From the IMG/VR virus record IMGVR_UViG_3300035497_000162, positions 1-64,000 of that record: a DNA stretch of 64,000 bases. One strand, 5' to 3'. Position numbers and translations under genes: made by a program. Shown here one piece after another: positions 26,137 to 26,409 of this stretch. The notes under the pieces were generated by a model. It worked only from the letters and a program-made list of their open reading frames with translations, had not been told where the DNA came from and ran no database searches. Every line of letters starts with the position of its first letter. Within the stretch, counting starts at the first letter, position 1. This DNA comes from a virus. Taxonomy: Duplodnaviria > Caudoviricetes.

Positions 26137-26206
26137 GAGGTAGTTTATACCTTTAAAGTACATCGCTACTCGTATAGAGTCTAGATGTAAAGCTATGTTA
26201 TTTGAG
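26137..26206 (+). ncRNA. guide scaffold, cassette 2
   Basis: Same scaffold; anti-repeat CTATGTTATTT perfectly complements AAATAACATAG; ends in ATTTGAG. Confidence 0.75.
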
Positions 26207-26409
26207 GTTTTATATGTATATAAAATAACATAGTAATAAAACAATAGAAACGAAACAGTTTTCGACAATATTGTTTTATATGTATATTAAATAACATAGT
26301 AATAAAACATCTATAATTTAAAGTCTTTTAATATTTTTGTTTTATATGTATATTAAATAACATAGTAATAAAACATTTACAGTCTATTGAATAACATAGC
26401 ACAAGAAAC
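26207..26409 (+). CRISPR. mini CRISPR array 2: three repeats, two 30-nt spacers, degenerate terminal repeat
   Basis: Repeats 26207-26242, 26273-26308, 26339-26374; spacers AATAGAAACGAAACAGTTTTCGACAATATT and ATCTATAATTTAAAGTCTTTTAATATTTTT. Confidence 0.92.

Follow-up and report, generated by a model that had tools for sequence, protein, structure and literature searches.

A phage TnpB with guide-RNA cassettes that contain a type II-A-like leader–repeat junction

What supplies guides to a virus that encodes a TnpB nuclease and carries CRISPR arrays? The question is raised by cassette 2, a 70-nt RNA scaffold followed by a short repeat–spacer array (array 2), in the first 64 kb (here, the window) of a 119,730-bp IMG/VR virus record with a GC content of 26%. 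A preliminary description of the window had proposed that the TnpB effector borrows Cas1-Cas2-Csn2 of a host type II-A system to acquire its guides. Our own reading, which we hold tentatively and at a little below even probability, is that the virus merged a TnpB guide RNA with a type II-A integration site, such that host adaptation machinery of the Cas9 type would write guides for a type V-like effector against sister phages.

The record contains ten copies of the scaffold, all on the + strand, and one collapsed remnant (Table 1). Seven cassettes are split, consisting of scaffold, junction and full repeats, with the junction ATTTGAG in five and ATTTGAA in two; the other three are fused and run from the scaffold through a short loop or none to the 3′ half of the repeat and the guide. 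The scaffold element of cassette 2 terminates in GCTATGTTATTTGAG, and the 36-nt repeat of array 2 reads GTTTTATATGTATAT[A/T]AAATAACATAGTAATAAAAC. The anatomical observations of the preliminary description were borne out: ATTTGAG stands flush before repeat 1 of array 2 and ATTTGAA before array 1; the first four bases of ATTTGAG fall within the anti-repeat, as expected if motif and anti-repeat overlap; repeats are 36 nt long with GTTTT...AAAAC ends and spacers are mostly of 30 nt (eight of the 12 internal spacers in the whole record, the others being three of 27 nt and one of 23 nt); the final repeat of every array is the most degenerate, with 2–8 mismatches; and fused cassettes 3–5 are without an ATTTGAN junction. 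Repeats 1 and 2 are identical in cassettes 1, 9 and 10, with decayed distal repeats.

The sole effector candidate is an intact TnpB of 414 amino acids, whose gene is bracketed by cassettes 4 and 5. It aligns over its full length with ISDra2 TnpB (PDB 8h1j/8exa; E 1e-32), and the top PDB hit, 9yyg, a nuclease designed by artificial intelligence, has VDLG, VEDL and HDRD opposite the phage protein's IDLG, IEDC and HDRD motifs; by Pfam domains and this motif alignment, the RuvC triad of TnpB is intact. An RNA alignment of the ten cassettes and two sister lineages gave a consensus fold of three stems plus an 11–12-bp stem that pairs the anti-repeat with repeat positions 17–28, with compensatory changes in six base pairs. 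The first unit of array 2 folds accordingly (z = -3.4), and no Rfam family reached its gathering score. In this fold, ATT(T) alone of the motif ATTTGAG is paired; a loop contains T-GAG together with the repeat's 5′ half. Because the fused cassettes omit exactly that loop and their scaffolds covary all the same, the junction is not needed for the scaffold fold. We regard the cassettes as very likely the guide genes of TnpB.

We propose the following mechanism. A TnpB nuclease that the phage has domesticated would be served by about ten guide-RNA genes, the locus being one of them and uniting in its design an omegaRNA and a CRISPR array of type II-A. From each cassette would come a ~70-nt scaffold, the last stem of which would be formed by the anti-repeat and the 3′ half of the 36-nt repeat, and the guide would lie 3′ of the repeat, as in TnpB and Cas12; trans pairing with the scaffold would be needed for spacers after downstream repeats. 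The loop of this last stem would, in the seven split cassettes, carry a II-A style junction, ATTTGA-N/GTTTTATA (the slash marks the leader–repeat border). Because the loop contains the leader–repeat junction, the cassette would be guide gene and integration target together, with new ~30-nt spacers inserted at this junction. The writer would be host Cas1-Cas2-Csn2, together with Cas9, working in trans on phage DNA as it replicates, and the guides would be directed at sister phages.

The proposed junction can be compared with those of known loci. The preliminary description had called ATTTGAG a conserved type II-A leader-end motif, and this is confirmed in the literature: ATTTGAG/GTTT is the Group 1 II-A leader–repeat junction, present at 87/167 loci (Van Orden et al., PMC5382924). 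When species genomes were scanned for pairs of 36-nt units that have GTTTTA...TAAAAC ends and lie 29–31 nt apart, 119 arrays were obtained, nearly all from low-GC Firmicute or Mollicute metagenome-assembled genomes (MAGs). Among these 119 arrays, ATTTGAG is matched at at least six of seven positions just before repeat 1 in 53 array orientations, 47 of which match at all seven. The closest of the fetched arrays, L043 and L059 from Clostridia MAGs (locus GC 23%), have the junction ATTTGAG/GTTTTAGAAGTATGTTATTTTAGATAGTAATAAAAC, that is, ATTTGAG/GTTTTAGAAGTATG...ATAGTAATAAAAC; bona fide cas9-cas1-cas2-csn2 loci of low-GC Clostridia MAGs read ATTTGAG/GTTTTAG...ATAGTAATAAAAC, and L043, the only one of the closest two that was checked, was verified as a cas9-cas1-cas2-csn2-leader-array locus. 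The phage repeat agrees with that of L043 at 28/36 positions, distributed as 11/13 over positions 1–13, 4/10 over positions 14–23 and 13/13 over positions 24–36 (24/26 for the ends). When the inner 24 nt were shuffled, the observed best identity of 29/36 was reached in 6 of 2000 trials. A reversed orientation of the repeat relative to ATTTGAG was considered and dropped: as these repeats are near-palindromic, the two orientations score alike (28 and 29 of 36), and the orientation of the leader agrees. In S. thermophilus CRISPR1, integration specificity resides in 10 bp of leader, a leader-proximal repeat block and a block at the repeat–spacer border, with mid-repeat blocks less important (PMC6895254). 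The phage repeat retains the very II-A ends that experiments have shown to direct integration, and its altered middle is the zone that pairs with the scaffold.

The bare 7-mer carries little of this signal: ATTTGAG is not rare in the genome (11 on the + strand versus ~17 expected from composition), so that the signal lies in its flush position at repeat 1, in its being conserved across diverged lineages and in its agreement with real II-A junctions. The seven junction copies in this genome are paralogues and were counted as one event. In sister lineages L010 and L008, whose TnpB is 52–54% identical, the scaffold has diverged and the mid-repeat is different; ATTTGA-N/GTTTTATA and the repeat's 3′ end are retained, with the junctions ATTTGAT and ATTTGAC; in all, ATTTGA plus GTTTTATA is invariant in 9/9 split cassettes of the three lineages, while the adjoining scaffold and mid-repeat diverge. 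A purely RNA-level reason for the motif would have ATTT fixed by anti-repeat pairing and GAN/GTTTT serving as a processing or protein-contact site, with the likeness to II-A due to chance or convergence. It is true that ATTT is paired with AAAT of the repeat, that the 7-mer is common in this AT-rich genome and that the last leader base is variable; against this, the fused cassettes do without TGAN and the 5′ half of the repeat, their scaffolds covarying, and the likeness extends to both repeat ends and to the length geometry. We consider this reading improbable, and the arrays very likely to be II-A in format and probably in origin.

More broadly, the phage arrays resemble those of type II-A Group 1 (S. 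thermophilus CRISPR1 type; PMC5382924, PMC4330368, PMC6895254) in the 36-nt GTTTT...AAAAC repeat, the modal 30-nt spacers, the motif flush with repeat 1, the degenerate distal repeat and, in a sister lineage, the leader-end polarity of spacer change. They differ in that the operon cas9-cas1-cas2-csn2, which in type II-A stands beside the array, was not found near them, in a 'leader' that is itself a structured guide scaffold, in a guide that is read 3′ rather than 5′ of the repeat, in a remodelled mid-repeat, in their dispersal as ten mini-arrays, in the variable last leader base and in the presence of 27-nt spacers.

If the junction is an integration site, spacers should differ among strains at its end of the array. 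The L008 lineage comprises 43 TnpB variants on contigs of up to ~127 kb, and five distinct strain arrays of this lineage were compared. L008 and L141 have spacers 2–5 and the trailer in common and differ in spacer 1 alone; L143, identical in four samples, and L152 have two trailer-proximal spacers and an anchor in common and differ at the leader end; and L153 has one additional spacer before the first spacer of L143. All five arrays end in this anchor, a 16-nt guide (AACGGCTTAAAAGTTT) that is also the guide of fused cassette 4 of the phage. In the L008 lineage, leader-end differences combined with trailer-end sharing form the signature of leader-end insertion. The expectation of leader-polarised spacer gain among strains holds for this sister lineage; samples of the phage itself show no variation and are uninformative. 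For the family, we think it likely that spacer gain is active and leader-polarised.

The same comparison bears on the view that a II-A leader–repeat unit was once captured or built upon and has no present writer, strain differences arising by recombination or deletion among phage arrays. That cassettes recombine and decay is evident from their fused, truncated and collapsed forms, the phage's own lineage is invariant across samples, spacer lengths are heterogeneous, and insertion near a pre-existing array has been named as one route to type V arrays (PMC10691335). Recombination alone makes no new spacers, however, and the sister strains hold many unique 30-nt spacers with novelty at the leader end and sharing at the trailer end; moreover, the junction has been conserved even though ATTTGAN is dispensable for the RNA. 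We consider such a relic unlikely.

Which enzyme, then, would insert the spacers? The preliminary description had reported no cas1 or cas2 in the window, and this extends to the whole 119.7-kb record, in which neither Cas1 nor Cas2 nor Csn2 was found (the Csn2 search had no positive control). Because the phage has no adaptation genes of its own and its repeat ends and leader end match real II-A loci, the integrase would most likely be host Cas1-Cas2-Csn2. We infer the identity of the integrase and of the host, as well as RNA processing, cleavage and the target-adjacent motif (TAM), from sequence, and we put the chance that a host II-A complex is the spacer writer at about even. The proposal that TnpB borrows this complex is partly supported: it gains from the motif, the array match, the missing cas genes and the sister-lineage polarity, and loses from the 27-nt spacers, which are atypical of II-A.

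Several further points weigh against it. The 27-nt length accounts for 3/12 spacers in the phage, which also has one of 23 nt, and for 2/1,279 in the II-A comparison arrays, where 1,129/1,279 spacers are of 30 nt. The last leader base varies among G, A, T and C across cassettes and lineages, and repeat position 7 is T in the phage and G in the fetched II-A repeats with an identifiable leader. Within array 2, repeats 2 and 3 do not match repeat 1 exactly, the difference being 1 nt. There is no array variation within this phage, five other assemblies being 100% identical (cassette 5 is identical in all five, and across cassettes 2–5, contigs of four further samples show 100% identity). A II-A integrase picks a 3′ protospacer-adjacent motif (PAM) and not the 5′ TAM of TnpB, so many captured spacers might be useless. 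A search with 1,276 spacers of the fetched II-A arrays against the phage and its relatives gave nothing above chance and hence no host. Finally, the record is 94% complete according to CheckV, and the absence of cas1 and cas2 is a result for the record of this phage alone.

An alternative writer could be an unrecognised phage adaptation protein, the product of a gene located in the 6% that the record lacks, or a non-II-A host Cas1-Cas2. Many open reading frames (ORFs) of the record have no family match, and 27-nt spacers are unlike II-A, both of which would suit a different enzyme as does the incomplete record. Yet in the two overlapping stretches that were compared (~29 kb in total), assemblies of 118.6 and 119.7 kb are in agreement, and leader end, repeat length, both repeat ends and modal spacer length match II-A specifically. 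We judge a different integrase to be slightly less probable again than the absence of any present writer.

The II-A-like repeats could also mean that host Cas9, not TnpB, is what the arrays serve, in the way of a viral mini-array that hijacks the host's interference. Every array, however, is joined to a scaffold that pairs with the 3′ half of the repeat. Over its first 22 nt, the phage repeat matches the nearest II-A repeat at 15/22 positions (counted by eye), which implies poor pairing with a host trans-activating CRISPR RNA (tracrRNA). In addition, the system is found with tnpB and is missing in relatives without it: family phages with a helicase 71–76% identical have no tnpB at the SpoVS site, and no cassettes were found in the fetched stretches around the helicase of these tnpB-less phages. 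From the absence of both from family relatives, we conclude that the system is a lineage-specific gain. Service to host Cas9 is highly improbable. Relatives were also sought by scaffold or repeat pattern, with no match in viral contigs and, for the repeat pattern, none in genome or metagenome contigs; TnpB relatives in IMG/VR are only distant.

Returning to TnpB as the user of the guides, two spacers nearly match genes of the phage itself. The spacer at 77102-77131 matches window positions 33969-33998 at 28/30, the match starting at the third base of a start codon, and the spacer at 71961-71990, also at 28/30, matches 71192-71221, a site 740 bp upstream of its own cassette, the mismatches falling at guide positions 2–3. 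These two near-self matches suggest that the targets may be alleles in sister phages. Spacers 1 (27 nt) and 2 (30 nt) of cassette 10 match each other at 21/27 and have the same 3′ end, which fits two captures anchored by a 3′ PAM. Beyond the two near-self matches, phage and sister spacers gave nothing against their own and relatives' DNA; the anchor guide and three spacers, used as exact patterns, had no match in viral or metagenome contigs; and the L153 array had none among GenBank phages. When the region of cassettes 6–9 was compared with five II-A MAG genomes, matches were to repeats and tRNAs or were short or of low identity, and no full-length spacer-sized match lay inside a cassette. Two candidates were rejected: the best II-A spacer hit (in L123) lies outside any array, and a 31-nt hit at 97% identity from the family-wide DNA search falls in a methylase motif and not in an array (this search scored two candidates per genome and is insensitive to spacers). 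The C5 DNA methylase gene of the phage has 74–79% nucleotide identity over 400–750 bp to small contigs of three MAGs; this match to the bacterial family that holds L043 is possibly a host hint, possibly the result of horizontal transfer.

How TnpB lineages acquired CRISPR arrays and a supply of spacers is an open question that this system addresses, and two origins of the arrays have been left possible, duplication of an omegaRNA segment and insertion near a pre-existing array (PMC10691335). Like IS200/IS605 TnpB with its omegaRNA (ISDra2; 8h1j, 8exa), to which it aligns in full, the phage system has its guide at the 3′ end of a structured RNA, and one cassette begins right behind tnpB. This cassette 5 starts 10 nt past the tnpB stop and has a 3′ guide, where a TnpB/OMEGA system would have a single omegaRNA overlapping the 3′ end of tnpB; the nine further cassettes are unlinked to it, and seven of them have arrays. 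The phage scaffold also differs in being only ~70 nt long and downstream of the ORF rather than inside it. Membership in IS200/IS605 rests on TnpA and transposon ends: the record holds no Y1 TnpA, and no insertion-sequence ends were seen, although no search was aimed at them. What was found is the combination typical of type V systems without an adaptation module (V-U/V-F/TranC-like), namely a TnpB-derived effector, a CRISPR array and a tracr-like RNA with an anti-repeat. As in the type V-U/Cas12f/TranC intermediates (PMC10691335; LaTranC, PDB 9jfo), the effector is TnpB-sized, adaptation genes are lacking and both split (tracr plus CRISPR RNA) and single-guide forms occur. Unlike in those, the arrays have a II-A junction, split and fused guides occur in one genome and the carrier is a phage; the protein, moreover, is nearer to ISDra2 TnpB than to LaTranC, which it matches in its C-terminal part only (E 5e-16). 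In RpoE-associated TnpB, half a repeat has re-fused with the tracrRNA into an omegaRNA (PMC10691335), and fused cassettes 3–5, in which the 3′ end of the scaffold is the 3′ end of the repeat, resemble the same collapse; the phage, by contrast, has an intact nuclease, and its fused forms exist alongside split ones. The 'Cas12 hacker' preprint was set aside because its subject is host thioredoxin and not array borrowing.

Virus-borne mini-arrays and the Cas1-less arrays of large phages likewise lack adaptation genes and are aimed at rival viruses, and reliance on host enzymes has been proposed for them; their effector is of the host's own type, and their repeats are nearly identical to those of the host. 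The phage arrays resemble them in lacking adaptation genes and, putatively, in their targets, and differ in that the effector is the phage's own TnpB and the II-A likeness is confined to the integration-relevant parts of the repeat. The system is a variant among the TnpB-to-Cas12 intermediates, with an unusual and testable claim. Sequence links its array part to another CRISPR type, one genome harbours split as well as fused guides, and sister strains show polarised spacer turnover that is probably ongoing, no adaptation gene having been found in the phage. If the proposed mechanism is true, it would be the first cross-type trans-adaptation exploited by a virus and would provide direct sequence evidence for a TnpB-to-Cas12 transition that starts by array capture rather than by omegaRNA duplication; it also suggests that phages may draw on host adaptation enzymes for phage–phage conflicts. 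The parts for a test are defined: a 414-aa nuclease, a ~95-nt guide and a ~50-bp junction.

Table 1. Positions of the cassettes, tnpB and other features (window and record numbering coincide)
Feature	Position	Strand	Details
Cassette 1	11860-12138	+	scaffold; ATTTGAA (11923-11929); repeats at 11930, 11989 and 12055 (degenerate), decayed fourth; spacers 23 + 30 nt
Cassette 2 scaffold (omegaRNA/tracr-like)	26137-26206	+	70 nt, two stems + anti-repeat; conserved in ten cassettes and two sister lineages
Cassette 2 anti-repeat GCTATGTTATTT	26192-26203	+	inside scaffold
Cassette 2 leader-end motif ATTTGAG	26200-26206	+	last 7 nt of scaffold
Array 2 repeat 1	26207-26242	+	36 nt, GTTTT...AAAAC
Array 2 spacer 1	26243-26272	+	30 nt
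Array 2 repeat 2	26273-26308	+	
Array 2 spacer 2	26309-26338	+	30 nt
Array 2 repeat 3	26339-26374	+	
Array 2 end	up to 26409	+	15-nt terminal guide, then degenerate partial repeat
Cassette 3, fused	28871-29051	+	scaffold + anti-repeat, short loop, repeat 3′ half, 29-nt guide, further parts
Cassette 3 single full repeat	28986-29021	+	degenerate; followed by another guide
Cassette 4, fused	40746-40848	+	no anti-repeat; scaffold joined straight to ATAACATAGTAATAAAAC; guide AACGGCTTAAAAGTTT... from 40819
Anchor guide AACGGCTTAAAAGTTT	40819-40834; L008:4429-4444 and 4532-4547		
tnpB	40882-42126	+	414 aa; Pfam HTH_OrfB_IS605, OrfB_IS605, Cas12f1-like_TNB
Cassette 5, fused	42137-42310	+	10 nt past tnpB stop; 26-nt guide, truncated repeat, second guide
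Collapsed remnant	61584-61611	+	first scaffold hairpin fused to last 10 nt of repeat
Cassettes 6-10, scaffold starts	71855, 75668, 76573, 76867, 89991	+	beyond the window
tRNA cluster	75589-76972 (L011:11589-12972)		beyond the window
DUF285 protein	142-1278		
N6/N4 methylase	28017-28785		
C5 DNA methylase	34845-36872		
ArdA-like protein	38875-39645		
SpoVS	43090-43371		
Tad2-like protein	51059-51505		
GroEL-like protein	51740-53227		
21-nt tandem unit	57451-57577		intergenic

The phage is myovirus-like, encoding a portal, a major head protein and a tail sheath, and its nearest capsid relatives are Listeria, Bacillus and Streptococcus phages at 34–38%, which indicates a Firmicute-phage affinity only. 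Genetic code 4, and with it a Mycoplasma host, was considered and is unlikely: TGA ends six long + strand frames, and Trp is encoded by TGG. Usage of the codon CGG is very low in the genome (0.13 per 1000 codons). The ArdA-like, SpoVS, Tad2-like and GroEL-like proteins are products of anti-defence and host-physiology genes close to the TnpB locus.

Three cassettes lie in the tRNA cluster. The scaffold of cassette 7 begins 6 nt after tRNA-Thr and its 29-nt guide reaches the first base of tRNA-Gln, and that of cassette 9 begins 3 nt after the end of tRNA-Cys; at these positions next to tRNAs, the guide RNAs (gRNAs) could be trimmed by RNase P and RNase Z in the manner of a natural tRNA-gRNA array. 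Elsewhere in the window, the DUF285 (BspA-like repeat) protein has 378 aa and is made of 72-nt DNA repeats, the N6/N4 methylase is readable only from 28228, with a broken frame upstream, and a 21-nt unit (CGTTCAAAAAAATACCTGACT) is present in 5–6 tandem copies with an iteron-like look.
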